A stretch of DNA of 64,000 nucleotides from an uncultured virus (IMG/VR IMGVR_UViG_3300005294_000012) (lineage: Duplodnaviria; Heunggongvirae; Uroviricota; Caudoviricetes), in IMG/VR virus record IMGVR_UViG_3300005294_000012; one strand, given 5' to 3'. The notes below the pieces were generated by a model. The model was not told where the DNA came from. It ran no database searches and saw only the letters and a program-made list of their open reading frames with translations. Below, one piece after another: positions 290 through 27,890 of this stretch. The stretch's first letter is position 1. Each line of letters begins with the position of its first letter. A program made the position numbers and the translations under genes.

Positions 290-3052
290 GTGACACTGCT
301 AGCGGAATACGGCTTCAAGGAGGGCGTCGGGCTTCACGCCTACGACTCCTCGGGTAATGGCCGCTCGCTTGCAGCGACCAACGCCACCACGTCCTGGAAC
401 TCCGAGGGCGGTCGGACCCAGATAACCGGCCTGCCCGGGCCGAACACGTCCCAGAACAGCTGGACGATGATGGCCTGGGTCAAGCGGACCGGGACCTGGA
501 CCGGCTGGGCGGCGGCATTCGGGAAGAACGGCTGCTATGTCGAGGTCAACGCGGCCGATAGCTATCGGCTGAACTTCTTCGGCGGCACGAACTCCAACAC
601 CACCTCGGCCGTCGCGACCCTGGATACCTGGATACACATAGCGGTCACCCGGGACACAGCGACCGGACAGACGCTGTTCTACATCAACGGCACCGTTCAA
701 GGATCCGGGGTCACCAACGGGGCGCAGAACTTCGGAACTGGTGGCCCGTGGGGTGTGGCGCTGAACGTCGCGACCTCGGCAGAGGACTCCGACTTCGTCG
801 GCACCGTCAAGGACTTCAGGGTCTTCGACACCGCTCTGGATTCGACCAACATCAACACCCAGATGAACACCGCCGTCACGGCGGCGGCGGTGACGATGGT
901 GGCGCAGACCTCTGGGGCCCCAGCCAACGCTTCGGCTTTCGCCCCGACTCTGCCGAGCCACGCCACCGGCGACCGGATGATCTTGAAGGTGGTCGGTAAG
1001 TACAACACGACCACGATCCCCACCATCAACCAGAGCTGGGTGCTGCTCGGCAGCGGCACCGGCGGCACAGGTTCTACGGGGAACGACACCGGCCAGGTCT
1101 TCTGGGCGGTTTACGGCAAGGACGCCACCTCCGGATCTGAGACGGCGCCCACGGTCACTCCCGGCGGTACAGCTCCGGACTCCTGGGAGTGGGAGTGTGA
1201 GGTTTGGCGCAAAGGCACCGGCAGGTCGTGGAAGGACGCGATCGCCACCTCTGCTGCCTGGGTCCAGGCGGTTTCAGACACCTCGACTGCCTCGCCACTC
1301 ACCGGGACCGCCAGCGCATTCTCCGGGCAGCCCACAGCTGAGGACGCGATCTCGTGCGCCGGCGTCATACCGACCGACCTCGGGTCGGCGCTGGGCGCCA
1401 CCACAATCACCGCCACGGGCCTCTCTGGCGGCTCGATCACCTCCACCAGCCAGTACGTAGAGAACGCCATGGGCGGCGACACAGCGCTTGTGTACCCGCG
1501 CTGGCTGGGCTTTGCGGGCACGGCGTCCGCCGGTGTCGCCATGTCGTTCACGGTCACCGGCGCGACCAACCAGTCCGGGGTCTTGGTCGCCATCGCGCTG
1601 CGGCAGCAGCCGGCCGGCCAAACCGTCACTTTGGGCCAGACCACCGAGACCGATTCGACTTTCGCCCTCAGCCGGCAGAAGGTCCGGACACTGGGTCTCG
1701 TCACGGAGACCGACAAGGCTTTCCGACTGGCCAAGGCGGTCGGGCGCCCGTCGGAGGCCGACTCGGCCTTCGTGATCACCCGGCAGAAGATCAGAACGCT
1801 CGGCCTGACCACTGAGACCGACCGGACGTTCCGGATTCCTACCCCGTTGGGGAGGCCTTCGGAGACGGATACTGCACAAGCGATAAACCGTATCAAGATA
1901 CGAATTCTCGGTCTGACCACCTCGGGAAACGCCACCTTTGCGGTGGGCCGGCAGAAGACCAAGACACTGGGCTTGATCACCGAGACGGATACTGCTCAAA
2001 CGAGCAGCAGGGTCAAGACCAAGATCCTCGGATTGGCCACCTCGAGCAACACGGTGCAGCCGATCTCCCGGGTTAAAACCAGGACTCTTGGGCTCGTCAC
2101 TGAGACCGATGTGGCCCAGACGATCACGCGTCGCAAGATCAAGATCTTGGGGCTCGTCACCGAGACGGACTCCACGTTCGCGATCAGTGTTGGTGGCAGT
2201 CACACGATCACCCTTGGGCTGACGACCGAGACCGATTTGGCTCAGCCGATAACTCGGCGCAAAATCAGGGCAGTAGGGCTGGCCACTGAGGTTGACTCCC
2301 TGCCAGCTGTGACCCGGCAGAAGATCAAAGCCGTTGGCCAGCCCTCGCAAACCAACACTGCCCAACCGATCACGCGGCAGAAGATCAAGACGTTGGGCCT
2401 GGTCACTCAGACCAACACCGCGCAGGCCATAACCAGGGTCAAGACCAAGACCCTTGGGCTCGTCACCTCGACCAACACCACGTTCGCCCTGTCGCGGCAG
2501 AAGATCAGGGTTCTCGGACGGCCGACTGAGACCGACCTGGTACAGCCGATCTCGATCGGCGGCAACCACACTATCCAGGTCGGGCAGGTCCTGGAGACCG
2601 ACACCTGCCAGCCGATCACCCGGGTTAAAACCAAGATCCTCGGGCTGACCACCGGGACCAACACCGCACTAGCGGTAACGCGCGTCCACCAGCGCACCCT
2701 CGGGCAGCCGACGACCACCGAGATCGCGCAGAAGATCACCCGGCGAATCGACATCGGACCGGCCACAGAGACCGACACCGCACTGGCTATGACGCGGCTT
2801 AAGACCAGATCCCTGGGCCGGCCGGTCGAAACAGATACCGTGTTCACGACGGTTCGAAGGAAGATCAAGATCATCGGCCTGGCGGTCGAGGCCGATTCGG
2901 CGCTGCACATCACGATCGGCGGATTGAACATTCCGCACGTGATCGACGGAACGCTGCACGTCCAGCCCAACCGGTCGACTGTGAACCTGACCTACAACCG
3001 ATCCGGGCTGAATCTTCAGCGCAACCTGGCAACTTTGGACGTGGAGGACTGA
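290..3052 (+). CDS. Fibre-like virion protein: N-terminal LamG/concanavalin-like domain plus long repeat shaft
   Basis: LamG motifs (DSSGNGR, WTMMAWVK, WIHIAVT, FYING, FVGTVKDFRVFDTAL); ~20-aa repeats in the C-terminal half. Confidence 0.8.
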   Translation: MTLLAEYGFKEGVGLHAYDSSGNGRSLAATNATTSWNSEGGRTQITGLPGPNTSQNSWTMMAWVKRTGTWTGWAAAFGKNGCYVEVNAADSYRLNFFGGTNSNTTSAVATLDTWIHIAVTRDTATGQTLFYINGTVQGSGVTNGAQNFGTGGPWGVALNVATSAEDSDFVGTVKDFRVFDTALDSTNINTQMNTAVTAAAVTMVAQTSGAPANASAFAPTLPSHATGDRMILKVVGKYNTTTIPTINQSWVLLGSGTGGTGSTGNDTGQVFWAVYGKDATSGSETAPTVTPGGTAPDSWEWECEVWRKGTGRSWKDAIATSAAWVQAVSDTSTASPLTGTASAFSGQPTAEDAISCAGVIPTDLGSALGATTITATGLSGGSITSTSQYVENAMGGDTALVYPRWLGFAGTASAGVAMSFTVTGATNQSGVLVAIALRQQPAGQTVTLGQTTETDSTFALSRQKVRTLGLVTETDKAFRLAKAVGRPSEADSAFVITRQKIRTLGLTTETDRTFRIPTPLGRPSETDTAQAINRIKIRILGLTTSGNATFAVGRQKTKTLGLITETDTAQTSSRVKTKILGLATSSNTVQPISRVKTRTLGLVTETDVAQTITRRKIKILGLVTETDSTFAISVGGSHTITLGLTTETDLAQPITRRKIRAVGLATEVDSLPAVTRQKIKAVGQPSQTNTAQPITRQKIKTLGLVTQTNTAQAITRVKTKTLGLVTSTNTTFALSRQKIRVLGRPTETDLVQPISIGGNHTIQVGQVLETDTCQPITRVKTKILGLTTGTNTALAVTRVHQRTLGQPTTTEIAQKITRRIDIGPATETDTALAMTRLKTRSLGRPVETDTVFTTVRRKIKIIGLAVEADSALHITIGGLNIPHVIDGTLHVQPNRSTVNLTYNRSGLNLQRNLATLDVED
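1631..2923 (+). repeat. Coding tandem repeat, ~60 nt/20 aa unit, >20 copies
   Basis: Consensus LGLxTETDTAQxITRxKxKT recurs throughout the translation. Confidence 0.9.
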
Positions 3053-3381
3053 TGGGCAACCTGCAGCTGGACATGAAGATCGGCGACACCCGGCCGAAGT
3101 TCGTCACTCCGGTGCTGGACAGCGATGGGGCAGCGATCTCGCTATCAGGGGCGAGCGCAGTGCTGAACATTCAGCTGCCGGACCAGACATTGGTGACCAA
3201 GACCCTGACTATCGATAGCCCTGCCACCAACGGCATTGTGAGCTACCAGTGGCTGATCGGTGACCTGCCGGTGATCGGGGACTACAAGTTCGAGGTCCAG
3301 GTCACATTCGGCGACGGCACCAAGCAGACATTTCCGCCGAAGGACTACGGAACCATCAGTGTGCACGCTGATCTCGACTAA
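3052..3381 (+). CDS. BppU-N-like Ig-fold virion protein
   Basis: GDTRP...NGIVSYQW..GDL...GDYKFEVQVTFGDGTKQTFP pattern; overlaps the fibre stop codon. Confidence 0.65.
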   Translation: MGNLQLDMKIGDTRPKFVTPVLDSDGAAISLSGASAVLNIQLPDQTLVTKTLTIDSPATNGIVSYQWLIGDLPVIGDYKFEVQVTFGDGTKQTFPPKDYGTISVHADLD

Positions 3382-3420
3382 GATCGCGCACGAGAGGCCA
3401 CGCTGAGCAGGGGGAAGAAG

Positions 3421-3627
3421 ATGGCATCACGTATCGTCGTGTTCCGTACCGGTCCGGCCGGCGGCGGCGGCACTCTGAGCGACCACAGCATCGCCAACCT
3501 CAATACGATCCGGGGCGCGACCAACCAGATCCCTGAGGGCAACGACCACCCGCAGACCCGTTTGCTGCCGGCGTACGTGCTGCCGGCCAACCGGAACAGC
3601 TTCGGGAATAAGGACGGCGGCATCTGA
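3421..3627 (+). CDS. Small hypothetical protein
   Basis: Purine-rich RBS, coupled by TGATG to the next gene. Confidence 0.55.
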   Translation: MASRIVVFRTGPAGGGGTLSDHSIANLNTIRGATNQIPEGNDHPQTRLLPAYVLPANRNSFGNKDGGI

Positions 3628-3821
3628 TGTCCCGCACCTTGGACGGCGTCGGCGCCGTCGGCGTACGCGGTATCCGCAGGACCACGTCAGCGGCCAAAGG
3701 CAGCAAGAGTCGGGCGAGGACATCGTCCTCGGTGGCCAATAAGGTTCGCCAGCACAATCCGCCCGCAGCCATCAACAGGGCTGCTACCTCTAAGAGCGGC
3801 ATCCAGAGGCGCAAGGTCTGA
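3627..3821 (+). CDS. Small basic hypothetical protein
   Basis: TGATG coupling on both sides; Arg/Lys/Ser-rich. Confidence 0.55.
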   Translation: MSRTLDGVGAVGVRGIRRTTSAAKGSKSRARTSSSVANKVRQHNPPAAINRAATSKSGIQRRKV

Positions 3822-4159
3822 TGGCTGGCCGCGTACTGCGTAACTCGCGCGGCCAGTTCGCAGGATCAACAGGTGGATGGGGTCGTGGCCGGGTCGGTCG
3901 CGGCGGCGGATTTGGCAACGGTCGCAAGGGTAAGGTCCGCTCGCTCAGCGGCTTTCAGCGGCAGCAGCGGATCACCCGGACCATCAGGCGCGGCGGGTCT
4001 GTCGGAGTGGCTGTCGGGGCCTCCCTGGCCGGCGCGGCTCTGGCGCACAAGGGCGCGTCTCACGGGAACGTCAGAGTCAGCCTTGCCGGACTCGGTCTTA
4101 CTGTCGTGGGGCAGGCAGCAACCGTGCATGCCAAGAGGACCATCGGGCGTCGCAGGTAG
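3821..4159 (+). CDS. Arg/Gly-rich protein with RNSRGQF motif and hydrophobic C-terminal segments
   Basis: Coupled ORF ending 3 nt before TerL. Confidence 0.6.
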   Translation: MAGRVLRNSRGQFAGSTGGWGRGRVGRGGGFGNGRKGKVRSLSGFQRQQRITRTIRRGGSVGVAVGASLAGAALAHKGASHGNVRVSLAGLGLTVVGQAATVHAKRTIGRRR

Positions 4160-4162
4160 GCC

Positions 4163-5551
4163 ATGCCCAAGGCCCTGTCAATGGCCGGGGTCTTTTCTGA
4201 GATCGGCTACTCCCCGCATAAGGTTCAGCAGCGCATCCATCGTCAGATCAACGAGAAGCGTTTCCGCGTGGTCTGCGCCGGCCGGCGTACCGGTAAGTCC
4301 ACTCTCGGCGGTCACGAGCTCGCCATCCGCGCGTTGCAGGCCCAGCTGCGTTACAACGAGCTGGAGCCGTTCGGCCGGCGCGCCGAGTACTGGATCGTCG
4401 GCCCGGAGTACTCCGATGCCGAGAAGGAATTCCGTGTTCTCTGGAACGACCTCACCACGCTCGAGGTGCCTCTTGATCATCCCGGCAGCTACAACGACCC
4501 CAACGGCGGGAACATGCACATCTCGCTGTGGGGCGGCAGATTCCAGGTGCACGCCAAGTCCGCTAAATACCCCGGCACTCTGGTCGGCGAGGCGCTCGAG
4601 GGAGTGATCCTGGCCGAGGCGGCGAAGCTGAAGCCGTCGGTCTGGACTAAATACATTCGACCTACATTGGCCGACTACAAGGGCTGGGCGCTGTTCAGCA
4701 GCACGCCCGAGGGCAAGAACTGGTTCTACGAGCAGTGGCAGCGCGGGCAGCGCGGAGACGGCAACTGGTGGTCGGTCCGGATGCCCAGCTGGACGAACAA
4801 CATCCTCTTCCCGCAAGGCCGCTACGACCCCGAAATCACGGACATGGAGTCCGAGATGACGGAGGAGAAATTCAACCAGGAGATCGGTGCCGACTTCACC
4901 GAGTTCGTCGGCCGGGTCTTCAAGGATTTCGACGAAGAGATCCACGTCGGGCACCACCTGTACGACCCGAATCTGCCGGTCTATCTGGCCACCGACTACG
5001 GCTACTCCAACCCCACCGTCGTGCTGTTCATCCAGGTCGACATCTGGGACAACGTCTTCGTGATCGGCGAGTACTACCACGTCCACAAGACCATCGACGA
5101 GGTGGCGCAGGAGATCTGGACGCACCCCCGGCTCGGCAACCTGGTGCGGGTTGCTCAAGATCTTTACCCCGACCCCGAAGACCCCGGGGCATCGAACTAC
5201 TTAGCCAAATCATGGAAGGTCACCGTCCACGGCGGCACCGGCGGTTTGATCAGGGATCGCATCGACATGATCCGGCGAGGCCTCAAGATCCAGCCCGAGT
5301 TCCTGATCCACGGGCACCCGGACAAGGCGCCGAAACTTTATGTCGATCACCAGTGCCGCAACACGATCAGGGAAATGCAGGATTATCGCTACCCTGAGAC
5401 CAAAGATGAGCTTACGCAGGACCCGAAAGAGAACCCGCTCAAGAAAGATGATCACTGCCCGGAGGCGCTGGGCCGGTTCTACAAGGGGCATTTCAGTGAC
5501 AGCGTAAGGAAGTCCCGGCAGGCGCGTCAGCGTACGGCCAGGTCGGCATAG
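4163..5551 (+). CDS. terL: Terminase large subunit (portal-linked copy)
   Basis: Walker A GRRTGKS, Walker B VILAEAAK, STPEG coupling motif, nuclease motifs TDYG and DDHCPEALGR; immediately upstream of the portal. Confidence 0.95.
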   Translation: MPKALSMAGVFSEIGYSPHKVQQRIHRQINEKRFRVVCAGRRTGKSTLGGHELAIRALQAQLRYNELEPFGRRAEYWIVGPEYSDAEKEFRVLWNDLTTLEVPLDHPGSYNDPNGGNMHISLWGGRFQVHAKSAKYPGTLVGEALEGVILAEAAKLKPSVWTKYIRPTLADYKGWALFSSTPEGKNWFYEQWQRGQRGDGNWWSVRMPSWTNNILFPQGRYDPEITDMESEMTEEKFNQEIGADFTEFVGRVFKDFDEEIHVGHHLYDPNLPVYLATDYGYSNPTVVLFIQVDIWDNVFVIGEYYHVHKTIDEVAQEIWTHPRLGNLVRVAQDLYPDPEDPGASNYLAKSWKVTVHGGTGGLIRDRIDMIRRGLKIQPEFLIHGHPDKAPKLYVDHQCRNTIREMQDYRYPETKDELTQDPKENPLKKDDHCPEALGRFYKGHFSDSVRKSRQARQRTARSA

Positions 5552-5559
5552 GGGGAACT

Positions 5560-7155
5560 TTGACAACGATCTGGGACACCGCGAGCCCGTTTACCGGGAC
5601 GCCGGCCGGCTGGTTGAACCAGGAGGACAGCCTCCGCCTCAACGCCTACCAGCTGTACGACCTGCTCAACGCCAACGACTCCTCCGCGATCAAACTCACG
5701 CTGCGTGAGGACGAAGAGAACCCGATCTATGTCCCGTCGGCGAAGCGGATCATCAAGACCAAGGCCCGTTATGTCTGCAAGGATCTCGGGTTCCAGATCG
5801 TCAACACCACCTCTGAGCTGGGCGAAGAGGGCGAGGTCGTCGTAGACCCGAGCCAACAGGTCGAGATGATCATGGCCTTCGGCAACTTCTTCACCCGCGA
5901 GCGGTTCTTCGCGATGTTCCGGTCGGCGATGAGCTTCGGCCTGGCGCAGGGCGACTGGTGCATCTACCTCTACGCCGACCCGTTGAAGCCCGAGGGATCC
6001 CGGGTATCGGTCACCGCGATTCAGCCCGAGACGTTCTTCCCGATCAAGGACCCCAAGGACAAGACCAAGATGGTCGGGGTTCGCATCGTCGAGGAGATCA
6101 TCGTCGACAACAAGAACTTGCTGAAGGTCCAGACCTGGCTGACGGCGCGCGCTTTCGGGCACCCGCAATACAACGACGGGCTATACGTCGATGGTGCGGA
6201 GATCGTCCGCGACATCCAGGTCATGGAGCCCACCGACTGGGAGGACCCCAAGAAGCGGAAGCTGGTCGCCCATCCCGACAACCTGCCGCAGGAACCGGTC
6301 GAAGGCATCACGCAGCTGCCGGTCTACCACTTCAAAGCCAACGAGAAGCGCGGCGAGTTCTACGGGATCAGCGACCTGGCCGGACTGGAGCGGGTCTTCT
6401 ACGGCGTCAACCAGGCAGTCACCGACGAGGATGTGGCGATCGCCATGGCCGGCCTCGGTGTCTATGTCAGCACCAACCGCCCGGTCGACGCGAACGGTAA
6501 CCCAACCGACTGGAAGATGGGCCCCCGCAGGGTGGTCGAGGTCGAGGGCGAGGACGGCCAATCCGCCGGCGACCAGTTCACCCGAGTTCCCGGCGTCACC
6601 AATATCCAGGCCAGCCAAGATCACTACAGGTACCTGCAGGACCAAGCCGAATCGACCGCCGGCATCTCCGGGGTGGCGCTTGGCGAGGTCGACACGGCCA
6701 TGGCCGAATCCGGGATCGCACTCTCCATCCGGTTGGCGCCGCTGCTGGACGACGCGAACGACAAGGACGAGCTGATCCTGGCCAAGCTGCGGCAGCTCTT
6801 CCACGACCTCAAAGAATGGTTCGCCGCGTACGAGACCAGCAACTTCCCCGAGGAGCTGGAGGTCGTCCCGGTCGTTGGGCCGAAACTGCCGCGCGACGTC
6901 GACAAGGACCAGGCCGTCTACAGCGACCTGCATCTGGCCGGCGTCATCCCGACACGGCTCTACATCGAGAAGCTCAACGAGCTCGGCTACGACCTGGGCA
7001 ACCCGGCAGACCTGATCGCCGAGGCTCAGAAAGAAGCCGACGAGAACTTCAAGCGACAGCAAGAGCAGCTGGACGCGGCAGGTATCGACGCTGGCGGGAA
7101 CCGTCTCGACCAGGAGGCCGGCGGGCCACCGTCTGATGAAGGGGCGGCGGCTTGA
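5560..7155 (+). CDS. Portal protein
   Basis: 531 aa following TerL; YGISDL and AESGIAL motifs; acidic tail. Confidence 0.9.
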   Translation: MTTIWDTASPFTGTPAGWLNQEDSLRLNAYQLYDLLNANDSSAIKLTLREDEENPIYVPSAKRIIKTKARYVCKDLGFQIVNTTSELGEEGEVVVDPSQQVEMIMAFGNFFTRERFFAMFRSAMSFGLAQGDWCIYLYADPLKPEGSRVSVTAIQPETFFPIKDPKDKTKMVGVRIVEEIIVDNKNLLKVQTWLTARAFGHPQYNDGLYVDGAEIVRDIQVMEPTDWEDPKKRKLVAHPDNLPQEPVEGITQLPVYHFKANEKRGEFYGISDLAGLERVFYGVNQAVTDEDVAIAMAGLGVYVSTNRPVDANGNPTDWKMGPRRVVEVEGEDGQSAGDQFTRVPGVTNIQASQDHYRYLQDQAESTAGISGVALGEVDTAMAESGIALSIRLAPLLDDANDKDELILAKLRQLFHDLKEWFAAYETSNFPEELEVVPVVGPKLPRDVDKDQAVYSDLHLAGVIPTRLYIEKLNELGYDLGNPADLIAEAQKEADENFKRQQEQLDAAGIDAGGNRLDQEAGGPPSDEGAAA

Positions 7156-9089
7156 ATGACAAGTGGATCCTCGAGCGTCTCTTCCTAGCAGTCCCCGAGC
7201 TGGCTGCTGACACCGGTTTCATTGACGCCCTGGTAGGCGCCGGCGTCCTCAACTCAGAGCACGTCAGGGTCTTCCGCAGACTCACCGGGCGTCACAAGAT
7301 CAGCGCGCTGCGCGGCCGGCCTCTGCTGCAGCGGATCATGGTGGTCGTCCCGGAGATCATCTCGGTGCGCACCATCAACCTGCTGGCCCGGTACAACCTG
7401 ATCCCGTCCAAAGAAGCGCACGCGCTGCGCATCACCTTGCGGGTCGCCAACCGACTGCTGCCGGCGCCGCTGAACACCGATCACATCTACGAGCGCCTGG
7501 CCATGATCTTCGATGACGTGTTCAGCCCGGAGATGGTGTCCTACCTGCGAGCGCTCGACAACGAGACCATCGACCTGGTGCGCGACGTGCTGCTGCGCGG
7601 CAAGACTCGACTGGGCAGCGCCGACGCAGCGCTGATCCGGCAGCTGCTGATCAATTCGATTCGCAGGGCCCAGGTGATGCGCTCGGTGATTTCGGCTGGC
7701 CGCATCACCCGGGACGTCGTGTCACAAGCCCGTGCGTTGGACAGTGTCTGGGACATTCTAGGGGTCACATTCGACGGCCTTTTGAGCCGACGAATGCTGA
7801 AGAACCTGGTCCGGGCTGGGGTGATCAGCGCTGAGAGGTACGAGCTGTGGGCCCATATCTCTGACCTGGGGCTCGGTGTGTGGCGCAAGGTGGCTGCTGG
7901 CCGGAATTACGAGTCTTGGGCAGCTCGGGGCTTGCTACTCAGCGAGGGAGTTCTCAGCCCGGAGCTGATCAAGGTCTTGCGAGATCTCGGGGTCATCTCG
8001 CAGCGCCAAGCGACGATCTTATATCCGGTGTCGCAGATCATGCGTGAGATAACACGCGGGCTCGGCGAGAAGTGGCGTACGTCTCGCCGGTACCGGATTG
8101 TGCCCGGTGAGGCACCGATCAAGACCTTCGCTCGGCACACTCAGACCACCGACAAGGCGATCCTGAAGCTACTCGCGCAGGCTGCCGACGACGCCGGCAA
8201 AGAGGCCGAGCGGCTGATGAAAACCCAGGGCTTCGCCAAGATGTCCAGGGCCCGCCAACAGCAGCTGGTCGCGCGGCAGCTGCACAACACGATGCAGGAT
8301 CTCTGGGAGGGCGCCGGCCACCTGGTGATCTTCGGCGAGAAGGAAACGGCCAAGGCCGCAATGGAGGCGCTGCCGTCCCTGCAGAAGCTGTTCGGGGCCA
8401 ACGCGGATGGCCAGGGGCTGGAGAGATCGCTCCTTGCCAGCGCCCGATCGGGCGTCGATAGCTTCATTAGCCGGGAAGAGCAACTTCGATCACTCTCCAG
8501 CCGTGTCTGGAAGAATATCGCTCTTCACAACGGACGGCTAGACAAGGAGATCGCCAAGGGCCTGCTCCGAGGCATGACGGCGCAGGAGCTGGCGGCGGTG
8601 GTACGAGGTTTCGTCCACCCCAATGTGCGGGGCGGAGTCTCTTACGCGGCCATGAGGCTGGCCCGGACCGAGATCAACAACGCCTTCCACAACACCGCGA
8701 TCCGCTACACCCGGGAGATGCCCTGGGTCGAGGGGTACGAGTGGCATCTGTCCGGCTCCCACCCCAAAACCGACATCTGTAATGATCTTGCCGAGCGCAA
8801 CGGTGGCCTCGGGCGAGGCGTCTATCAGAAGAACAATGTGCCTCAGAAGCCGCACCCATTGTGCCTGTGCTACATCACCCCGGCCACCGTCGACAACGCC
8901 CGGTTCTATCGGAACCTCCGTAACGGCGCGTACGACCGCTACCTCAACAGCGTCGAGCGGAACGGGGTTTTCGATGAAACCGACGATTACACGCCGACGA
9001 GGTGGCAGGAAATCGCCGGCGGCGCCGCTAAGGTTGCGCTGATCGCGGGGATGTCAGCTGCGGCACGCCGGTACTTACCAGCGGCTTGA
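7152..9089 (+). CDS. MuF/minor capsid (head morphogenesis) protein with long N-terminal extension
   Basis: RLARTEINNAFH, W-H-C..L and PHPLCLC motifs; follows the portal. Confidence 0.85.
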   Translation: MNDKWILERLFLAVPELAADTGFIDALVGAGVLNSEHVRVFRRLTGRHKISALRGRPLLQRIMVVVPEIISVRTINLLARYNLIPSKEAHALRITLRVANRLLPAPLNTDHIYERLAMIFDDVFSPEMVSYLRALDNETIDLVRDVLLRGKTRLGSADAALIRQLLINSIRRAQVMRSVISAGRITRDVVSQARALDSVWDILGVTFDGLLSRRMLKNLVRAGVISAERYELWAHISDLGLGVWRKVAAGRNYESWAARGLLLSEGVLSPELIKVLRDLGVISQRQATILYPVSQIMREITRGLGEKWRTSRRYRIVPGEAPIKTFARHTQTTDKAILKLLAQAADDAGKEAERLMKTQGFAKMSRARQQQLVARQLHNTMQDLWEGAGHLVIFGEKETAKAAMEALPSLQKLFGANADGQGLERSLLASARSGVDSFISREEQLRSLSSRVWKNIALHNGRLDKEIAKGLLRGMTAQELAAVVRGFVHPNVRGGVSYAAMRLARTEINNAFHNTAIRYTREMPWVEGYEWHLSGSHPKTDICNDLAERNGGLGRGVYQKNNVPQKPHPLCLCYITPATVDNARFYRNLRNGAYDRYLNSVERNGVFDETDDYTPTRWQEIAGGAAKVALIAGMSAAARRYLPAA

Positions 9090-15174: not shown

Positions 15175-18100
15175 GTGGGCCAGGTCAACCTGGGCACCGC
15201 GAGCGGCCGGATCGTCATCGACGGTAGCGGCGCCAAGTCTGGCTTTGACGTTGCCACATCCGCCGCGAACGCCTTTTTCAACGTCGTCGCCGACCGGGTC
15301 CACGAGATCGATCGGATCGGCACTCAGCTCACCAAGATCGGCGCGGTAGCCGCCGGCGGCTTCGGTCTGGCCATCAACACAGCTGCCAATTTCGAGCAGC
15401 GGCTGTCCGCCATCCAGGCCGTCTCAGGGGCCACCAGCGACCAGATGGCGCAGGTGTCCAAGACCGCCCTACGACTGGGCGCAGACACCAAGTTCTCGGC
15501 CGGTGAGGCTGCCAACGCCATCGAGGAGCTGGTCAAGGCCGGCATCTCGGTGCAGGACGCCCTGAACGGCGCAGCTGACGCCACCACGGCCTTAGCAGCC
15601 GCCGGCGAGATCGACCTGCCACGGGCAGCCGAGATCTCGGCGAACGCAATGAACGTGTTCAACCTGGCAGCTGCCGACATGCCGCACGTGGCCGACCTGA
15701 TCGCCGGCGCAGCGAACGCCAGCGCGATCGACGTCGAGCAGTTCGCCCAGTCCCTACAGGCCAGCGGTGCTGCGGCGAACCTGGCTGGCTTCAAATTCGA
15801 TGATCTTTCCCAGGCCATCGCGCTGATGGGCAACGCCGGCATCAAGGGCTCCGACGCCGGCACCTCGCTCAAGACGATGCTGCTGAACCTCAACCCTGTC
15901 ACGGACAAGCAGAAGGGGTTGATGGAGGACCTTGGTCTGATCACCAAGGAGGCGGGCAACCGGTTCTTCGACGCCGAGGGCAACGTCAAATCCTTCGCCG
16001 ACGTGGCGCAGGTGCTGCAGGACTCCCTGAAGGGCCAGACCAAGCAGCAGAAGCTGGCCACCCTGGAGACCTTGTTCGGCTCCGACGCGATCCGGGCCGC
16101 AGCTGTCGTCTCCGAGGCCGGCGCCCAGGGCTTCAACGACATGGCCACGGCCATGGGCAAGGTCACCGCAGCTGGGGTGGCAGCGACCCGAATGGACAAC
16201 CTGCGCGGCTCGCTCGAGCAGCTCAAGGGCTCGCTGGAGACCGCAGGAATCATCATCGGCACCGTCTTTCTGCCGGCACTGAAGCGAATCGTCGACTTCA
16301 TAACCCGCGTGGTCAACGTCTTCAACAACGCCCCCGAGGGGGTTCAGAAGTTCCTGACCGTAGTGGTGGCGCTAGGGGGTGGTCTGTCGCTGCTGACCGG
16401 CATTGCGATCAAGCTCCTGTTCGTCCTGATCCCGCTACTGGCCAAATTTCTGGGGTTCGCTGCTCTCAAAAGCATCTTCTCGATTTTCACTGCTGGCTTT
16501 GGTGCTCTCCGTGGCGGAGCCGGCATCCTCGGGGCGCTCAGCGTCGCCGGCGGGCGCGCGGCAGTCGTCTTCACCCGGATCGGCAAGGTCGGCAAGTTCC
16601 TCTTCGGCAGCCTCACCAAGATCCTGGGCGTACTCCGCTTCCTACGTGTGGCTATCCCGTTCGCCTTCGGCCCGTGGGGAGCGTTGATCGCCGGGATCAT
16701 CTCCCTACTGGTGATCTTGTTCAAGAAATTCCAGCCCTTCCACGACCTGGTGCTCCGGGTGGGCGATGCCATCAAGACCGGATTCGGCAAGGCGGTGCAG
16801 TTCGTCCAGGACGCCATCGCCCAGATCGTGGCCGGATTCCAGGGGCTCGAGGGCAGCGGGCCGGCGGCGGTGTTCGCCGAGCTCGGGGCTGGCGCGCGGA
16901 TCCTGTGGGAAGCCCTGAAGGAGCTAGCGGCTGTCTTCCAGGCGCAAGTAATGCCTGTTTTGCGGGAAGCCGGCGGACAAATTCTCTCGGCACTAGGGGG
17001 TGCCTTCAAGGAAATCTCCGGTTCCGTGCAAGACGCGGCACCGGCCTTCCGCCAGCTGGTCTCAACGCTCAAGCCTTTAGTGGCAGCCCTTGCCCCGGTA
17101 GTGGCCGCAATTCTGAAATTCCAGCTGGCCATCGTCAAGGTGGCAGTGATCCTGGTCGGGGTCCTGCTGTTCGCCTTGATCAAGATCGCCACCTTCGTCG
17201 CCGGCAAGCTGCTGCCCCCGTTCATCCGGTTCGCCACCTGGCTGGTAACCGGGCTTATCGGCGTACTCGGACCGGTGGTCGGTTTCTTCGTCCAGGTCGC
17301 TGCGGCCATCGCATCCTTCGTCGCCGGCGTGGTCGGATTCTTCACCGGGGCAGAGGCGGCAGCTGGCAGCGGAGCAGCCAAAATCCAGGGCGTCCTATCC
17401 GGGATAGCTGCTTTCTTCGTCGGCATCTGGAACGCGGTCAAGGCCGTCGTTATCGGGGCCTGGACGGCCATCTGGACCTTCATCACCACGGCGATCAACA
17501 CCGTAAAGACGATCATCACCACCGGACTGAACTTCATAAAGGGGCTATGGACCGCTTTCTGGGGTAGCCAGCTCGGACAGCTGGTGCTCAACGCCCTCGG
17601 GCTGATCGGCGACATCATCAAGCTGGCCCTGGCAGCCATCAAATTCGTCTTCCTAGCCTGGATCGCTGGAGTAAAGGCCAGCTGGAACATTTTCTGGACC
17701 GGGCTGACTGCCATCGTGAGCGCCGTCTGGAACGGCATCAAGGCCGTAGTGCTGGCCGGTATCGCCGTCGTAAAGGCAGCCTTCATCGCCGGGTGGAACG
17801 CGGTTCGGGCGGCGACAGCTGCCGTGCTGGCGCCCATCGTCGCCTTTGTGGCCGGCAGAATCCGGGCAATCCGGGCTGTGGTGTTGGCCGTTTGGAATGC
17901 GATCAAGGCCGCTACTGCTGCCGCCTGGGCGGTGATCCGGGCCAGAATCGTCACCCCGATCGCTGCCGCAGCTGCTGCCGTGTACGCGCGGACCGCCGGC
18001 ATCCGTGCCCGGGTATCGGCGGCGTGGAACGCAGTCAAGTCAGCCACCGTCGCCGCCTGGAACCGGGTGGTCTCAGCGATTAAGACAGCGGTGGACAAGG

Positions 18101-21742: not shown

Positions 21743-22596
21743 CCGGCCTTGATCAGTTCGTCAACGCCTCCTCCGGTGGTGAGAACAGGGAGAAGACGCT
21801 CTACGGGGCGCAGGTCACCGGCATCAACGCCGACGGCACGGTTGATCTTCGATACCTCGGTGGTGAGCACTCCGGGATTGAATGTTTGGGAAGCTATACA
21901 AACCGCACCACCGGCGACGTCGTGATGGTCAAGTCCGACGGGATCCGTTGGGTGGTGCTGGGCAAGCTCGGTGCTGAGGTCAACTCGATCCCGAACATCT
22001 CCTGGGGCAACGGGTCGCCAGTCGGCAGCGACTGGTCGGCAGCTGCGTCATCGATCAAGGTTCGGCCGGGGCAGATCTACATCCAGGGCACGGCGTTCGC
22101 TTCGACGGTGCCGACCCCGCAGGCGATCATCAATGCCTCGTTCGACCGCGCGTTCCAGAACAACCTGTGGAATCACGCGTTCTCAGGACGGCCGGCACAG
22201 GGCCAGGAGACGATCACCGGACTGTTCGGCAGCGGGACATGGGCCGGGGCCTGGTACTACAGCACAGACCTCACCACAGCTGTCCAGGCCAAGACGGTGC
22301 GCAGCATGGAGCTCCGGATCGAACGAGGCGCCGAGCCGTGGGGTTTGGACGAACCGGTCATCCCGTGGATCTACGCCCACGACGACAACACCCAGGGAAC
22401 CAGCTTGACGATGGTCGCCGGTCCTTACGCCGGCGTCCCGCTGGCGATCGGGCAGTCGGCCTGGTGGCAGGTGCCGGACACGATCATCAACATGCTCAAC
22501 GCCGGCACAGCAGCAGGGTTCGGAATCGCTTCGCTCCTTGCCGACGAGTTCATGGTCATGGCCGAGATGGCCGGCGACGTACGGATCTACAACTGA
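21739..22596 (+). CDS. Minor tail protein
   Basis: N-terminal OB-like spike motif (DGTVDL...GDVVMV...VVLGKL). Confidence 0.7.
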   Translation: MTGLDQFVNASSGGENREKTLYGAQVTGINADGTVDLRYLGGEHSGIECLGSYTNRTTGDVVMVKSDGIRWVVLGKLGAEVNSIPNISWGNGSPVGSDWSAAASSIKVRPGQIYIQGTAFASTVPTPQAIINASFDRAFQNNLWNHAFSGRPAQGQETITGLFGSGTWAGAWYYSTDLTTAVQAKTVRSMELRIERGAEPWGLDEPVIPWIYAHDDNTQGTSLTMVAGPYAGVPLAIGQSAWWQVPDTIINMLNAGTAAGFGIASLLADEFMVMAEMAGDVRIYN

Positions 22597-22606
22597 GGCG
22601 GGGGAT

Positions 22607-23212
22607 ATGGGCTCAGCACTGACAACTTTCGGCCAAGACCCGATACCGGCAACCAATGACGGGGTCTTGATCCCTGCCGACGTCTCGCAGTACGCGGAGG
22701 CGATCGCCCACAAGATCATTCACTTCGTCGCCGACCAGGCCGACCGCGACGTCCAGCTGGCTTCCGCAGCCGCCCCGGTGTTCGCTGCCTGCCCGACCGC
22801 AGTGTGGTTCAAGATCAGCGGTAGCGGTGGCGGCAGCGTGTGGGTGACGATCTGGCAGGACACCGGGCCGGTGGTCTCCGGGGTCGTGGCCGCGACCGAC
22901 TTCGACTACAGCTCCGGGTACGTGCGCAAGTTCAACGGCGGCTTCGCGTTCCTCGAGCTGGAGATGACGCGGCGCAACTCCGCGATCACCGCCGCCTCGA
23001 GCGGGAACATCACCGGCGACCCGCCGGCCTTTACGGTGCCTGTCGGATTCCGGCCCGACAGGAAGATCAACGGCGTGTGGCGCTCGGACATCACCGAGGG
23101 CACGTGGCGGATGGACACCGATGGCGTCGGAAGGATCATGTCCGGCAACCCCAGCCAGTCGATTCCGATCGACACGCTCGTGGAGTTCACCGCCGGCTAC
23201 GTGACCGCGTAG
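22607..23212 (+). CDS. Minor tail/fibre protein, paralog 1
   Basis: ATG at 22607 after GGGG; FTVPVGFRP motif typical of fibre tips. Confidence 0.7.
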   Translation: MGSALTTFGQDPIPATNDGVLIPADVSQYAEAIAHKIIHFVADQADRDVQLASAAAPVFAACPTAVWFKISGSGGGSVWVTIWQDTGPVVSGVVAATDFDYSSGYVRKFNGGFAFLELEMTRRNSAITAASSGNITGDPPAFTVPVGFRPDRKINGVWRSDITEGTWRMDTDGVGRIMSGNPSQSIPIDTLVEFTAGYVTA

Positions 23213-23225
23213 GGGGAGAGCACCA

Positions 23226-23828
23226 ATGGGATCAGCATTCACCACCTTCGGGCTCGACCCGATACCGGCGACGTCTGACGGGGTTCTCATCCCGGCTGAC
23301 ATCTCGGCCTATGCCGAATCGATCTTGCACAAGATCGCGCATTGGGTCGCCGACCAGGCCGAGCGGGACGTACTGTATGCCGCAGCTGTCGCCCCGATCC
23401 TGGTGGCGTCTCCAACGGCGATCTGGCTCAAGACATCAGGGTCGGGCGGCGGCAGTGTCTGGAAGACCGTCTGGAGCGACTCCGGATCGATCACCTCGGG
23501 CTTCGTCAACGGCGCTGACTTCACCGTCAGCGGCGGCTACGTCCGCAAGCAGAACAACCTGGTGCAGTTCACAGTGACGACGCTGCGAGCCAACTCGACG
23601 CTGGCGATCTCGGCTGCCGGCAACATCGTGGGCGACCCGACCATGTTCACACTGCCGACCGGGTACTGGCCGACGATCACGACTCCGGTCCTGGTCCGAC
23701 TGAACACTGGCGAGGCGATCGGTGAGGTTGACACCTCCGGAGCCTGCAAAATCCTGGCCGGCACTCCGAGCTACTCGATCGCGGTGGCCGAGACCTGCGT
23801 GGTGGCCGGATGCTTCTTTACGCCATAA
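23226..23828 (+). CDS. Minor tail/fibre protein, paralog 2
   Basis: Near-identical N-terminus to the preceding gene; FTLPTGYWP motif. Confidence 0.7.
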   Translation: MGSAFTTFGLDPIPATSDGVLIPADISAYAESILHKIAHWVADQAERDVLYAAAVAPILVASPTAIWLKTSGSGGGSVWKTVWSDSGSITSGFVNGADFTVSGGYVRKQNNLVQFTVTTLRANSTLAISAAGNIVGDPTMFTLPTGYWPTITTPVLVRLNTGEAIGEVDTSGACKILAGTPSYSIAVAETCVVAGCFFTP

Positions 23829-24136
23829 CCGGCGACTTCACCCCGGTCATCGTGGCCCTGGGCACCATCATCACGGTGCTGGCCACGGCGGTCGGATGGG
23901 GCATCAGACAGCTGTTCACTGGCAGACTTGTCCCGAGGTCGCACGTTGAGGATGTCAGGCAGGACCGTCGGGAACGTGTTAGTGAGATCGCGAATGAGAG
24001 AGACACATGGCGAGCGACCGTCGAAACGCAACAGGGCACGATTCAAACCTTGGTTGGGCAGATGGATCAGCTGCTCTCTCAGTTCGCCCTTTTCAATCAA
24101 GTTCTATCCGCGTTGAGGGACCGGGCCGAGCGGTGA
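23810..24136 (+). CDS. Membrane protein, one TM plus coiled coil (holin-like)
   Basis: Hydrophobic N-terminus, GRLVPRS motif. Confidence 0.6.
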   Translation: MLLYAITGDFTPVIVALGTIITVLATAVGWGIRQLFTGRLVPRSHVEDVRQDRRERVSEIANERDTWRATVETQQGTIQTLVGQMDQLLSQFALFNQVLSALRDRAER

Positions 24137-24363
24137 AGTGGCCCTGGAGTCGCGTCCCAGACCCCGATGACGATCTCCCCAAGGCGGATCAAAGAGCAGC
24201 TGACCAGGCTCAGCAGCGAGCGCACATGTGGCGCTCAGACGTAGAACGTCAGCAGGCTCGAGTAGATTTTGTAACAGAGCAAGCCAAGGCCAATCGCTCC
24301 GACGATCGTTTTGCTCAGATGTTTGAGGAGACGATGCACAGGAGACCACATGGAAGCGGTTAA
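24133..24363 (+). CDS. Small lysis-cassette-associated protein
   Basis: GTGA overlap start, MKWPW...DRFAQMFEETM. Confidence 0.55.
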   Translation: MKWPWSRVPDPDDDLPKADQRAADQAQQRAHMWRSDVERQQARVDFVTEQAKANRSDDRFAQMFEETMHRRPHGSG

Positions 24364-24700
24364 CGACTTCCTGTTCTACGGGATCTTCTTCGGTTACCTG
24401 TTCTTCTTGCTGGTCTATGGCTTCGGATCACCGTGGTGGAAGTCCGAGATGGGCATCCACATCATGTCGTTCATGGCGGTGTTCTTCGTCCTGATGAGCC
24501 TAGGTCTCACTTCGAGGCTCACCGGTGACGCCTGGTTCGACGCCCATCGGGTGGTGCTGCAGTTCTGCTCGTTCCTCAGCATGTTTGCCACGGTCTGGTG
24601 GCGGAACGTGATCTTGGTCAGGGCCCAGCTGTACAAGGGGGATCTTGAACAAGCGGTCCAAGACGCGCACCGCGCGCGCCCCGGCGATCAGCGGAGCTGA
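24350..24700 (+). CDS. Putative holin (3 TM)
   Basis: AGGAG RBS; three hydrophobic segments; SPWWKSEMG motif. Confidence 0.65.
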   Translation: MEAVNDFLFYGIFFGYLFFLLVYGFGSPWWKSEMGIHIMSFMAVFFVLMSLGLTSRLTGDAWFDAHRVVLQFCSFLSMFATVWWRNVILVRAQLYKGDLEQAVQDAHRARPGDQRS

Positions 24701-25062
24701 TTAGGCGCGCCCGCCGCCACGGATTCATCGCAAAGATATTGAGCGCGCGGGCGATCACGCTCATCATCCATGCGCGCGCGCAGGCGGTGCACCTGGAACG
24801 CGTCGCGCACAGATGTTGAGCACACGCGTCCATTCGCGCGAGCGCGCGAGCGCGCGGTTGTTCCCCGCGCGGAAAGATGATGAGCCCGCGCACGAGGCTT
24901 TGCCAGCATCTCGCGCGCGATTCTTACCAGGCGCGCGCAGTATTGAGCCCGCGTCGTGCATCGCGTGCGCGCAGTAAAACCGCGCGGGCGGTACACATTG
25001 AACGCGCCGCACATCGCGATTCTCGGCAAAAGGGGGAACGCGCGCGGGGTATTCACGCGCGT
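24664..25062. repeat. Alternating-CG-rich island with degenerate direct repeats
   Basis: Dense GCGCGC/CGCG runs; AGAT(A/G)TTGAGCnCGCG-like units at ~24734, 24811, 24875, 24939, 24995. Confidence 0.6.
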
Positions 25063-25236
25063 AGGCCGATGGATAGCCTGGCTATGCAAAATTAGCGAAC
25101 ATAGGTCGGCTATATGCCCTAGTCACAGCGTTTTCACTACAGCTGAGAGCGCCATGTAAGGACAAAGTTTCACCGCGACACGCCCGACTGCATTGTCGCT
25201 CTGACTAGGGACTTTGCATGTTTTTCCCGAATTGGC

Positions 25237-25266
25237 TTGACGTCATGGTGCGACATGGCCTAGATT
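25237..25266 (+). promoter_or_regulatory. Sigma70-type promoter P1 overlapping a 16-bp box
   Basis: TTGACG-18 nt-TAGATT; CGTCATGGTGCGACAT at 25241-25256. Confidence 0.75.
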
Positions 25267-25271
25267 TCTCG

Positions 25272-25810
25272 TTGTAAGGCCAGCAGGGAGGCAGGGACCG
25301 GGAGCAAGTGGAGGCCCGGGCCAGGCGGACAGGCTGGCAACCGGCCCAGACGGGACGGCTAGCAGGGAGTGTTAGACGGGTCGCCCGCATCTCCACGCCT
25401 AGCCCGTAGGGCTAGCTCGACCAATCAACCGCACAACCAAATAGACCTGTACCGGCGTAGAAGCGCGGACTCCGTATGAGGGAGGCACCCGCTGCAACGC
25501 GAGCCCATGGCGGCGCCGCTACAGAAGGACAATTCCACAAGAGACTGAGGGATATTTCCCCCGATGACTCGACCGCCACGACCGGCGCCCCTACGGGGCG
25601 GCGCGAGCGGATCGGATGACGAAACCACATCGAAAGGCGCGCGGTGGCGTGCGCCCTTGGGGAGAAGACCACGCGGAAAACTGCGGCGCGAAACGTCATC
25701 GCGTCGGCAGCAAACACGGGACTAAAGCCTAAAGAACGCGTGAGGAACCGTAGGTAAAGGGTTTAGCAACCCATGGTTTTAGTGAGGCTCGGAGTGTGAC
25801 CGAGCCTCGC
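25272..25810 (+). ncRNA. Putative long structured non-coding RNA or leader
   Basis: No credible ORF; many hairpins; lies directly after P1. Confidence 0.45.
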
Positions 25811-25834
25811 CATGACCAGAGGGAAGGAGTGATC

Positions 25835-26137
25835 ATGTCCGAACTGGTTTTCATCGTGTCGGGAACCGACACGCTCTACATGGCGCGCAGGCTGACCGCC
25901 GTTGAAGCTGAGAACTTCGGATGCCCGGGGTCGAATCTCATGCTGACAAGTGTCAAGCGCAAGGGCAGCCACATCGTGGGGAAACTGACCTTGACCGGCA
26001 CCAAGATCATCAAGCTGCACGGGAAGTTCCGTGGCACGGAGGGCATCCGTGCGCGGTTCGTGCCGTGGTCCGATCCGAACCCAGCAACCCCGGCCAAGGG
26101 CAGCTTCGCGCTGGCTGGCTACTTCTGCGAGGTGTGA
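25835..26137 (+). CDS. Hypothetical early protein
   Basis: AAGGAG RBS before ATG 25835. Confidence 0.65.
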   Translation: MSELVFIVSGTDTLYMARRLTAVEAENFGCPGSNLMLTSVKRKGSHIVGKLTLTGTKIIKLHGKFRGTEGIRARFVPWSDPNPATPAKGSFALAGYFCEV

Positions 26138-26595
26138 GATGGATCGAGTAACCCTGGCGCTCGCCGCGCTGTATGGCCAGCGGATCGCTGAGCTATTGGT
26201 CGAGAGTCTGGCCGATGTGCTCGCTGAAATCGACCGCAAAGAAGGGCTGCGCAACCTGTCGTACCAAGAGATCGCAGCCAACGCGCTCGAGATGATGGGA
26301 AGGGGTTTGTGATGGCAAAACTGAAGCCCAAGGAACGCTTCGTTGTGAAGTGCTCGGTGTACGTGACCACGTATTCGATGTCCCGGCAGCGCGCTGAGCA
26401 GCTGGCGGAGGAGATGAATCGTCCGGAGTCCAAGTGCTCCGAGACTGACCACGTCGCTATTGCAGAGGAGGTGCTGCGACCTTTCCATGGCCCCCTGATC
26501 TAGGAGGTGATCCACAGGAGTAGGCATCCATGTTCGAGCCCGGGCCATCCCCGCCCGGGCTTGTTCACGTTTGTCTAGTCAATCGGGAGGACTTA

Positions 26596-27200
26596 TGAGC
26601 ACGACGGACGACGTCTTGATCAAGAAAGCTGGGAAGTCTTCCGGCGAAGTGATCAACAACATTCTTTCCTACTGGGAGGCAGCGACCGAGCGCAACCGCG
26701 AGGACGGCGCCCAGTGGTACCTGATCAATCAGCAGGCCATCGATGAGATGGCCCACGGGAGCGGGGTGAGCCTGGACACAGCTGCGGCTGTGGTGGCTCA
26801 CCTATCACCCCGAATTCACTGGTCACGAAACATCATCGCGGCTCACAGTGTGCTGAACGGGCTGCCGGTGACCGGGATCATGACCAGAAGTCTGGCCGGC
26901 GCCCGGGCCGCGATTGCGGCCTATCAGATGGGTGAGGACCCGCTGAAGACACTCAAGGGCCCGAAGATTCGCAACTTCGCGGCCAACCTGATCGGTGACT
27001 CTGACGCGGTCACGATCGACATCTGGGCGGGACGCGTGGCGCTGGANTCAACGGCGGACCTGGAATTGATCATGGCCCGCGCCGGGGTCTACNNCGCGCT
27101 GGCNCAGTGCTACCGCGAGGCTGCCGCCCGCGTCGATGTCACNCCATCAACCATGCAGGCCACTTGCTGGATCGTGGCGCGAAACGGAAGGGCCGATTGA
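26596..27200 (+). CDS. Conserved phage protein with helical, possibly DNA-glycosylase-like fold
   Basis: G..WY, A.LSP...W..N, GPK..NF..N, VTIDIWA, MQA..W motifs; GGAGG RBS. Confidence 0.6.
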
Positions 27201-27202
27201 CC

Positions 27203-27697
27203 ATGTCTTACGACTACCGGAAAGACTGGGAAGAGAGCCGCAAGCGCGAGCTCGAGGAGCACCGTGCCTACTGGAGCCTGCGCGTTCATTGGGCACCGTT
27301 CCTAGGCCCTGACAGGCTCGGCCGCACCCTGAAGTGTGGCAGGGCCGGTGGCCCCTCCAGCTGGTGGACCTACACCGCGCCGCCACAGCTGAAGCCGTGG
27401 AAGCATTCCACGAAGCCCACCGCGTCCACGACTGCGCACGTCGAGATGTCGCAGCGCGTGTTTCGTGACCATAACACCGGCTGGGAGTTCACCTTCTGGG
27501 CGCTGGCGCCCAAGGCGCATCAACGGTCTGCCGCAGAGGCTGCTCACACCGAGTGGGTCTGGCTGATCTTGGAAGGCACCAACGGGCGCGGAGTCCACCA
27601 AGCTCTGGTCGACAACGAAACCGACCAGGTCTATTGGTGGGACAAGATCCCGGCGCACTACGTGGCACCCGCAGAAAAACTTTCTAATTCCGCTTGA
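27203..27697 (+). CDS. Hypothetical protein
   Basis: ATG 2 nt after the preceding stop. Confidence 0.6.
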   Translation: MSYDYRKDWEESRKRELEEHRAYWSLRVHWAPFLGPDRLGRTLKCGRAGGPSSWWTYTAPPQLKPWKHSTKPTASTTAHVEMSQRVFRDHNTGWEFTFWALAPKAHQRSAAEAAHTEWVWLILEGTNGRGVHQALVDNETDQVYWWDKIPAHYVAPAEKLSNSA

Positions 27698-27723: not shown

Positions 27724-27779
27724 GAAGACATGAGCGCGAGGGTACGAGCCGACAGAGACTCGTACTCCGCGCCCAGCAA

Positions 27780-27859
27780 GGGGCTGACTTTGGTGTCGCC
27801 CGGTCGGAAAGCCGCACGCGGAACCGACCGGTACGCGAGTTCGATTCTCGCCAGCTCCA
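27780..27859 (+). ncRNA. Minimal tmRNA-like RNA (tRNA-like domain only)
   Basis: Acceptor GGGGCTG/CAGCTCC-A with G3:U; 13-nt unpaired D-loop; 8-bp stem; T-arm GCGAG-TTCGATT-CTCGC. Confidence 0.75.
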
Positions 27860-27890
27860 CTCCAACCAAAACCCAAGAAGGGGAAGCAGC

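Follow-up and report, generated by a model that had tools for sequence, protein, structure and literature searches.

A putative untranslated, mosaic leader ahead of the early genes of an uncultured actinophage-like virus

In phage lambda, an untranslated leader of some hundred nucleotides (nt) lies between the early promoter pL and the first early gene, N, with a large hairpin just before the ribosome-binding site (RBS) of that gene. In the early region of phage T7, the tandem promoters A1-A3 are similarly followed by a leader, and an RNase III site lies ahead of gene 0.3. RNase III hairpins precede both T7 gene 0.3 and lambda N. In phage HK022, the put RNAs are elements that recur directly downstream of both early promoters and could act on the polymerase. 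A further point of comparison is provided by GOLLD and ROOL, which are large structured RNAs of phages.

The window examined here is a stretch of 64,000 nt from an uncultured virus, and it carries at 25272-25834 a region whose mode of action would, by analogy, come closest to that of the long early leaders in lambda and T7. As in the pL-N region, there is an early promoter (P1), an untranslated leader and a stem located just before the RBS. However, this leader is two to three times longer than that of lambda and the host is a high-GC actinobacterium. Moreover, no boxA- or boxB-like element was seen, no N-like gene was recognised, and cutting by RNase III would be a prediction only. The resemblance to the early region of T7 lies in a lytic phage that uses a host-type promoter, a long untranslated stretch and a hairpin of the processing type, with processing being predicted, and a relative of the window phage (contig L031) has three tandem promoters in its leader. 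Unlike in T7, the region is located mid-map rather than at the entering end, and the window has a single promoter. An RNA placed directly after an early promoter is also reminiscent of HK022 put, although the sequences that follow P1 and its sister promoter P2 appear unrelated by reading and the two-stem arrangement of put was not found. Finally, a phage region with over 500 nt of non-coding sequence recalls GOLLD and ROOL, and a sequence-only reading of this DNA, which made that comparison, had suggested a possibly new phage non-coding RNA. A new large structured RNA of the GOLLD or ROOL kind is not supported. There is no Rfam match and no conserved multi-helix architecture, the folding and hairpin content equal the genome background, the middle of the region is swapped in a close relative, and the sequence is not conserved in other relatives.

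The window represents a lytic-looking, actinophage-like siphovirus of soil with a GC content of about 63%, and its + strand carries all genes. By PHROG searches, the interval 4-22 kb encodes a terminase, portal, major capsid, tape measure and tail proteins, each from the + strand, and the interval 32-46 kb a helicase, exonuclease, primase and DnaE-type polymerase. The nearest cultured relatives are actinophages, namely Arthrobacter phage Wollypog (57% identity in the capsid protein and 47.5% in the polymerase) as well as Microbacterium, Gordonia and Mycobacterium phages. A DNA-level search of the window against the phage collection gave no match. We found nothing in the literature on phage Wollypog, and the portion of the literature on actinophage non-coding RNA that was accessible held unrelated work only.

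There is a gene-free gap of 1.13 kb at 24701-25834, between the first early gene and the holin gene, with which the late (structural and lysis) block ends (Table 1). This gap is the largest of its kind in the window and is also the longest stretch with flat codon-position GC, wherein the spread is 0.00-0.27 over 24700-25830 compared with 0.3-0.6 in the flanking genes. Twelve ORFs taken from the gap (33-133 amino acids) have no Pfam match and no PHROG match below an E value of 0.06. When 32 stop-to-stop segments of at least 25 amino acids were compared with 117 fetched loci, only two noise matches (E 0.056 and 0.079) were returned. These findings bear out the earlier view that no credible ORF lies between P1 and the ATG at 25835. 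The non-coding stretch noted in that reading is real, but its extent of about 540 nt (25272-25810) was too small, as the stretch is contained within the 1.13-kb gap. The RBS GGAAGGAG precedes ATG 25835. The product of the first early gene has no relative in Pfam, PHROG, phages, IMG/VR or the protein Atlas.

Table 1. Coordinates of the features described in the text, given as positions in the 64,000-nt window
Feature	Position	Strand	Remarks
Holin gene	24311..24700	+	Pfam PF23778 Phage_holin_2, E 5.4e-16; strong codon-position GC signal
7-bp hairpin over the holin stop codon	24685..24702	+	no U tract
GCGC-rich repeat field	24703..25060		many short direct and inverted repeats
Conserved 41-nt box	25176..25216	+	shortly before the -35 element of P1, within the lower-GC portion of the gap
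Promoter P1 (sigma-70 type)	25237..25266	+	TTGACG, 18 nt, TAGATT; predicted start near 25272
5' segment of the leader	25272..25317	+	kept in a close relative (X3 contig); very purine- and G-rich
Variable middle cassette	25318..25659	+	tandem duplication; hairpins 25399-415, 25549-60 and 25586-600
3' segment, kept across mosaic variants	25660..25834	+	hairpins 25687-25703, 25759-25772 and 25784-25808, then the ribosome site
First early ORF	25835..26137	+	100 amino acids; codon-position GC signal; no known family
Promoter P2, sister of P1	27694..27723	+	TTGACA, 18 nt, TATTAT; shared 15-mer in the spacer
tmRNA-like mini RNA	27780..27862	+	83 nt; tRNA-like domain only; downstream of P2

P1 is the sole consensus promoter in 24000-26500, and a stricter promoter pattern finds only two sites across the 64 kb, P1 and P2. 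By itself, P1 is not significant (one site versus 0.7 expected in shuffled sequences), and a DNA-pattern search with the P1 pattern gave no match. There is, however, an exact 15-mer, GTCATGGTGCGACAT, that is present in the spacers of both P1 and P2 and nowhere else in the 64 kb. The P1 region (25256-25281) is 81% identical over 26 nt to Wollypog (L007) 9057-9082, which is in the syntenic place (E 0.062).

The RNA predicted downstream of P2 scores 43.2 bits against the Rfam tmRNA model (gathering score 47; E 2.4e-16). It matches both ends of the model, comprising the acceptor stem, the T arm and the ending, while 304 model positions are skipped. ARAGORN does not call this mini RNA. The surrounding region (27728-27868) folds with a z score of -3.67, and a strong hairpin at 27731-27775 is located upstream of the mini RNA. 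Neither ARAGORN nor Rfam finds a tRNA- or tmRNA-like element in 24600-25900. Because P1 and P2 share an exact 15-mer and the RNA behind P2 matches the tRNA-like domain of tmRNA, the co-regulation with a mini-tmRNA that had been suggested earlier is plausible. In our view, the non-coding region and P1 are real, and the promoter link to the tmRNA-like RNA is well supported.

The mini RNA sits just upstream of a gene at 27891 for a 327-amino-acid protein, whose relatives in IMG/VR, metagenomes and genomes are only 24-33% identical, save for one contig (L009) with a 96% relative. That contig begins near window position 26200 and misses the leader. The assembly is ambiguous at about 26900-27150, where eleven N letters lead to X residues in two ORFs (26571-27200 and 27107-27697).

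Several pieces of the gap upstream of P1 have counterparts in the IMG/VR contig L031. A block at 24673-24720 is 81% identical to L031 2349-2396 (E 1.4e-8) and includes the hairpin over the holin stop codon. In the corresponding L031 hairpin (2363-2380), two stem pairs are changed on both sides with pairing retained. This hairpin is likely the end or a 3' barrier of the late transcript. The repeat field resembles L031 2349-2614 (nhmmer E 0.0037), and a GCGC-rich field of short repeats follows the last late gene in three phages (window 24703-25060, Wollypog 8400-8940 and L031 2340-2620). It may serve as an origin, as a set of regulator sites or as a stack of transcript-end hairpins. Within the field of the window, five units start by reading with an AT-rich pentamer plus a TTGAGC-like word at a spacing of about 55-75 bp.

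The 41-nt box is 80% identical to L031 2625-2664, just upstream of the first promoter of L031 (E 2.5e-5). No other non-coding piece is as well conserved between the window and L031, two phages with just 51% identity in the helicase. The right part of the box supplies one arm of an inverted repeat (25117-25130 and 25197-25210). When a 17-mer from the box was used as a DNA pattern, the matches were the contig of L031 itself and one unrelated prophage-like element, present in a regulatory gap of three near-identical contigs (L033, L035 and L036, at about 1501-1517 in each). The number of matches is in line with chance, and this element was rejected as a relative.

The seven hairpins listed in the sequence-only reading are all self-complementary by reading, but two are displaced in predicted folds and their density is that of the genome background. 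Four of them contain perfect stems of at least 5 bp (25399-415, 25586-600, 25759-72 and 25784-808), and the hairpin at 25549-60 is present in the local fold. Each of the hairpins at 25332-46 and 25672-85 relies on a G-U pair and loses out to other pairings. There are five perfect hairpins in the stretch compared with a genome mean of 3.7 (sd 1.8), and at least five occur in 196 of 635 segments of the genome. As many stem base pairs as in the stretch are present in 85 of these 635 segments.

The fold of 25272-25810 is borderline when compared with dinucleotide shuffles (z -2.09, with 3 of 100 shuffles as good) and average when compared with 248 same-length segments of the genome after GC adjustment (z -0.04, rank 118 of 248). 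The minus strand of the stretch gives z -1.34. Folding is thus close to being no better than that of shuffled controls, an outcome that the earlier reading had itself named as counting against a structured RNA. At gathering score, the only Rfam match in the whole window is tRNA-Asn. With E values up to 10 allowed, 24600-25900 gives 10 matches from unrelated families (best E 0.59), all far below gathering scores, and the L031 leader likewise has no family match.

The composition of the stretch is more distinctive than its folding. The A-rich linkers noted previously hold true as composition, in that purines make up 58% (top 1% of segments) and T makes up 12% (bottom 2%). The 9-mer AGCAGGGAG indeed occurs twice near the 5' end (at 25283 and 25362), and the second copy is accounted for by a 25-nt tandem duplication at 25316-25364, wherein the two copies are 80% alike. 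There is also a mild enrichment of SD-like 5-mers, with 11 in the leader versus a mean of 4.4 and 41 of 635 segments at least as high. No such enrichment is found in the leaders of L031 (four) and Wollypog (none).

No RNA run was found to contain the stretch. Natural variants of this locus were sought among DNA contigs from four soil and rhizosphere runs, compared over 24700-25900. In a 1534-nt contig from run X3, the flanks 24862-25317 and 25660-25900 are matched at about 95% identity, but the 342 nt between (25318-25659) are replaced by 417 unrelated letters. The variant leader is nevertheless still long, with about 45 + 417 + 175 nt (about 640 nt). Three contigs from two runs are alike from 25660 or 25668 onward, each with a different sequence upstream. 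The leader is therefore built in three parts, of which the 5' piece goes with the promoter, the middle can be exchanged and the 3' piece goes with the first gene. By nhmmer, the likeness of the 5' segment to L031 extends to 25325. Among variants of the stem at 25686-25704, the pair 25691/25699 is changed on both sides and still pairs, whereas two neighbouring pairs are broken. There is no clear sign of selection on structure in this pattern.

More distant relatives were collected by a helicase search, using a single sequence and a four-sequence alignment, which found L031 (51%), L032 (37%) and 80 more distant loci. The window, Wollypog and L031 share only 37-57% identity in their capsid, polymerase and helicase proteins. 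In Wollypog, there is an unannotated gap of 1.29 kb at the syntenic place after the endolysin gene, at record positions 22,266-23,558. Its parts are, in order, a strong terminator, a field of GCGC-rich repeats, a very AT-rich stretch, a piece similar to the -10 and start of P1, and a leader of about 487 nt. No consensus promoter is found in this gap by the promoter tool. If the leader reading is true, its start may be expected near the conserved TTGTAAGG. The L031 contig has a flat-GC gap of 0.92 kb and a leader of 541 nt. This leader holds three tandem promoters, the second and third being two further copies of L031's own promoter family. Overall, L031 has seven + strand promoters at 2675-8264 (in 8 kb) with TTGAC, about 17 nt and a -10 within TGCCCTAAGAT, of which two carry a variant. 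These look like a phage-specific early promoter family.

Thus a leader of about 490-640 nt behind the same gap layout is found in Wollypog and L031 as well. Judged from these comparisons, the leader is conserved in position and length but not in sequence. Aside from the first 55 or so nt after the start, there is no significant leader likeness among the relatives. Against L031 and Wollypog, 25326-25810 yields no individually significant block, and the best one (E 0.046) is not collinear. A comparison by nhmmer of the three gaps with 117 sequences (the window included) recovers only the likeness of the window to L031. With three leader homologues found, all very diverged, MAFFT alignments of whole or partial leaders are unreliable. 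Short common motifs (CGGACTCCG, AGGAACC-TAG and an ACGGGTC hairpin about 100 nt past the start) were set aside, as their E values are at least 0.5 and they may be due to chance. The leaders of L031 (z -1.22) and Wollypog (z -1.15) fold much like their shuffles. All three leaders end in a strong stem of 9-11 bp before the RBS, and the sequences of these stems are unrelated. The related Microbacterium phage Krampus (L008) has no such gap, as only 126 bp separate its holin gene from the next gene. An unannotated gap of about 490 bp is present elsewhere in Krampus, at 16062-16550 ahead of the primase gene.

We have about even confidence that 25272-25834 is the untranslated, mosaic 5' leader of an early operon, with transcription being predicted. 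A promoter lies upstream, no ORF intervenes, and an RBS and ATG are located at the end. The stretch reads as a 5' UTR, given that no separating element stands between it and the first early ORF. The only terminator-like site before ATG 25835 is the weak 5-bp stem at 25759-72, and no U-tract terminator is present. The strong 9-bp stem at 25784-25808 lacks a U tract, and it is followed within about 25 nt by the RBS and ATG, which leaves no room for another promoter. An untranslated leader is therefore the simplest reading. Host RNA polymerase would start at P1 and continue uninterrupted into the first early gene. The leader would be the downstream half of a control region of 1.13 kb, which would mark the end of late and the beginning of early transcription and which comprises, in order, the holin-stop hairpin, the GCGC-rich repeat field, the lower-GC stretch with the box, P1 and the leader. 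The short G-rich 5' piece stays with the promoter and the 175-nt 3' piece with the first gene, and the 342 nt in between can be exchanged. By analogy with known early messages, the 3' piece and its 9-bp stem may act as a processing or stability element, and the purine-rich, U-poor composition may spare the untranslated RNA from early ending. The 15-mer common to P1 and P2 would be the site of a shared regulator.

A plain UTR fails to explain why a long leader persists in four lineages, and phages rarely retain 0.5 kb without a job. Furthermore, this phage has a true small structured RNA behind P2, just upstream of a gene, and so co-transcribed, processed RNAs do occur here. These points give some weight to the possibility that the P1 transcript is, or is cut into, stand-alone structured RNAs arranged as a modular array, with the exchangeable middle as an accessory RNA module and the stem at 25784-25808 as the place where the RNA is processed or terminated. 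In Actinobacteria, strong stems that lack a U tract have been suggested to act as terminators, and so this stem could end a separate RNA. The swapping of the middle as a unit is module-like, a strong stem of unrelated sequence closes each of the three leaders, and the 3' 145 nt (25690-25834) show a modest folding advantage over shuffles (z -2.39; 4 of 200 shuffles as good). Nevertheless, we consider stand-alone RNAs unlikely, given that folding energy and hairpin count equal the genome background, the leaders of the relatives fold no better, Rfam finds nothing at E values up to 10, no individually significant block links 25326-25810 to L031 or Wollypog, and a U-tract terminator is absent. A bolder form of this idea, which we regard as distinctly unlikely, is that the P1 transcript is freed from the early message and works as one or more stand-alone RNAs, constituting a new lineage-specific modular cassette of lytic actinophages that is switched on with the P2 mini RNA. 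The pair would then act as an early 'RNA arm' of host takeover that could, for instance, sequester factors of ribosome rescue or RNA decay, and the middle would be the host-specific part.

Alternatively, the gap might act mainly as DNA, either as a replication origin or as a switch region, with the leader being the transcribed flank of the origin. The repeats would bind an initiator or regulator, the lower-GC stretch would unwind, and the G-rich transcript of the promoter would help to open or prime the DNA. This would fit the repeat field, AT-richer stretch and promoter occurring in the same order in all three phages, the location of the best conserved pieces of the gap upstream of the start site and outside the leader, and the 68% purine content and +0.30 GC skew of the first 100 transcribed nt. 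However, an initiator gene or binding motif was not identified, the GC skew of the leader as calculated from compositions is inconsistent among the three phages (about +0.08, +0.02 and +0.16), and the cumulative skew makes no clear turn here. An origin also fits the upstream half of the gap better than it fits 25272-25810, and we judge it quite unlikely. It is very unlikely that the stretch is mere filler, such as a scar left by recombination or what remains of small early genes that decayed at a mosaic hot spot, retained only for being harmless, even though the sequence is unconserved among relatives, the middle is replaced outright in a near-identical phage and the folding is ordinary. Lineages whose proteins are only 37-57% identical retain a leader of comparable length, former coding sequence leaves no trace in Pfam, PHROG or translated comparisons, decay would not yield so strong a composition bias, and Krampus shows that the lineage can manage without the gap. 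The idea that the stretch hides one or more short translated ORFs has the least to recommend it and is highly improbable. There are ATG-started + strand ORFs of 47 (25476-25619) and 53 (25564-25725) amino acids, but codon-position GC is flat, neither ORF has an RBS upstream, no family or translated similarity was found, and both lie wholly or largely inside the cassette that is replaced in the close relative.

The same gap is present in the culturable relative Wollypog, a phage of Arthrobacter globiformis B-2979, and thus the choice between an untranslated leader and these alternatives is testable at the bench. If the untranslated-leader reading is true, then the region would be an ordinary early leader, though an unusually long one. 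What would be gained is a mapped control region from an uncultured actinophage, two early promoters under common regulation and a map of mosaic junctions. If instead the leader is a processed RNA, this would mean that lytic actinophages carry early non-coding RNA cassettes beside a tmRNA-like decoy.
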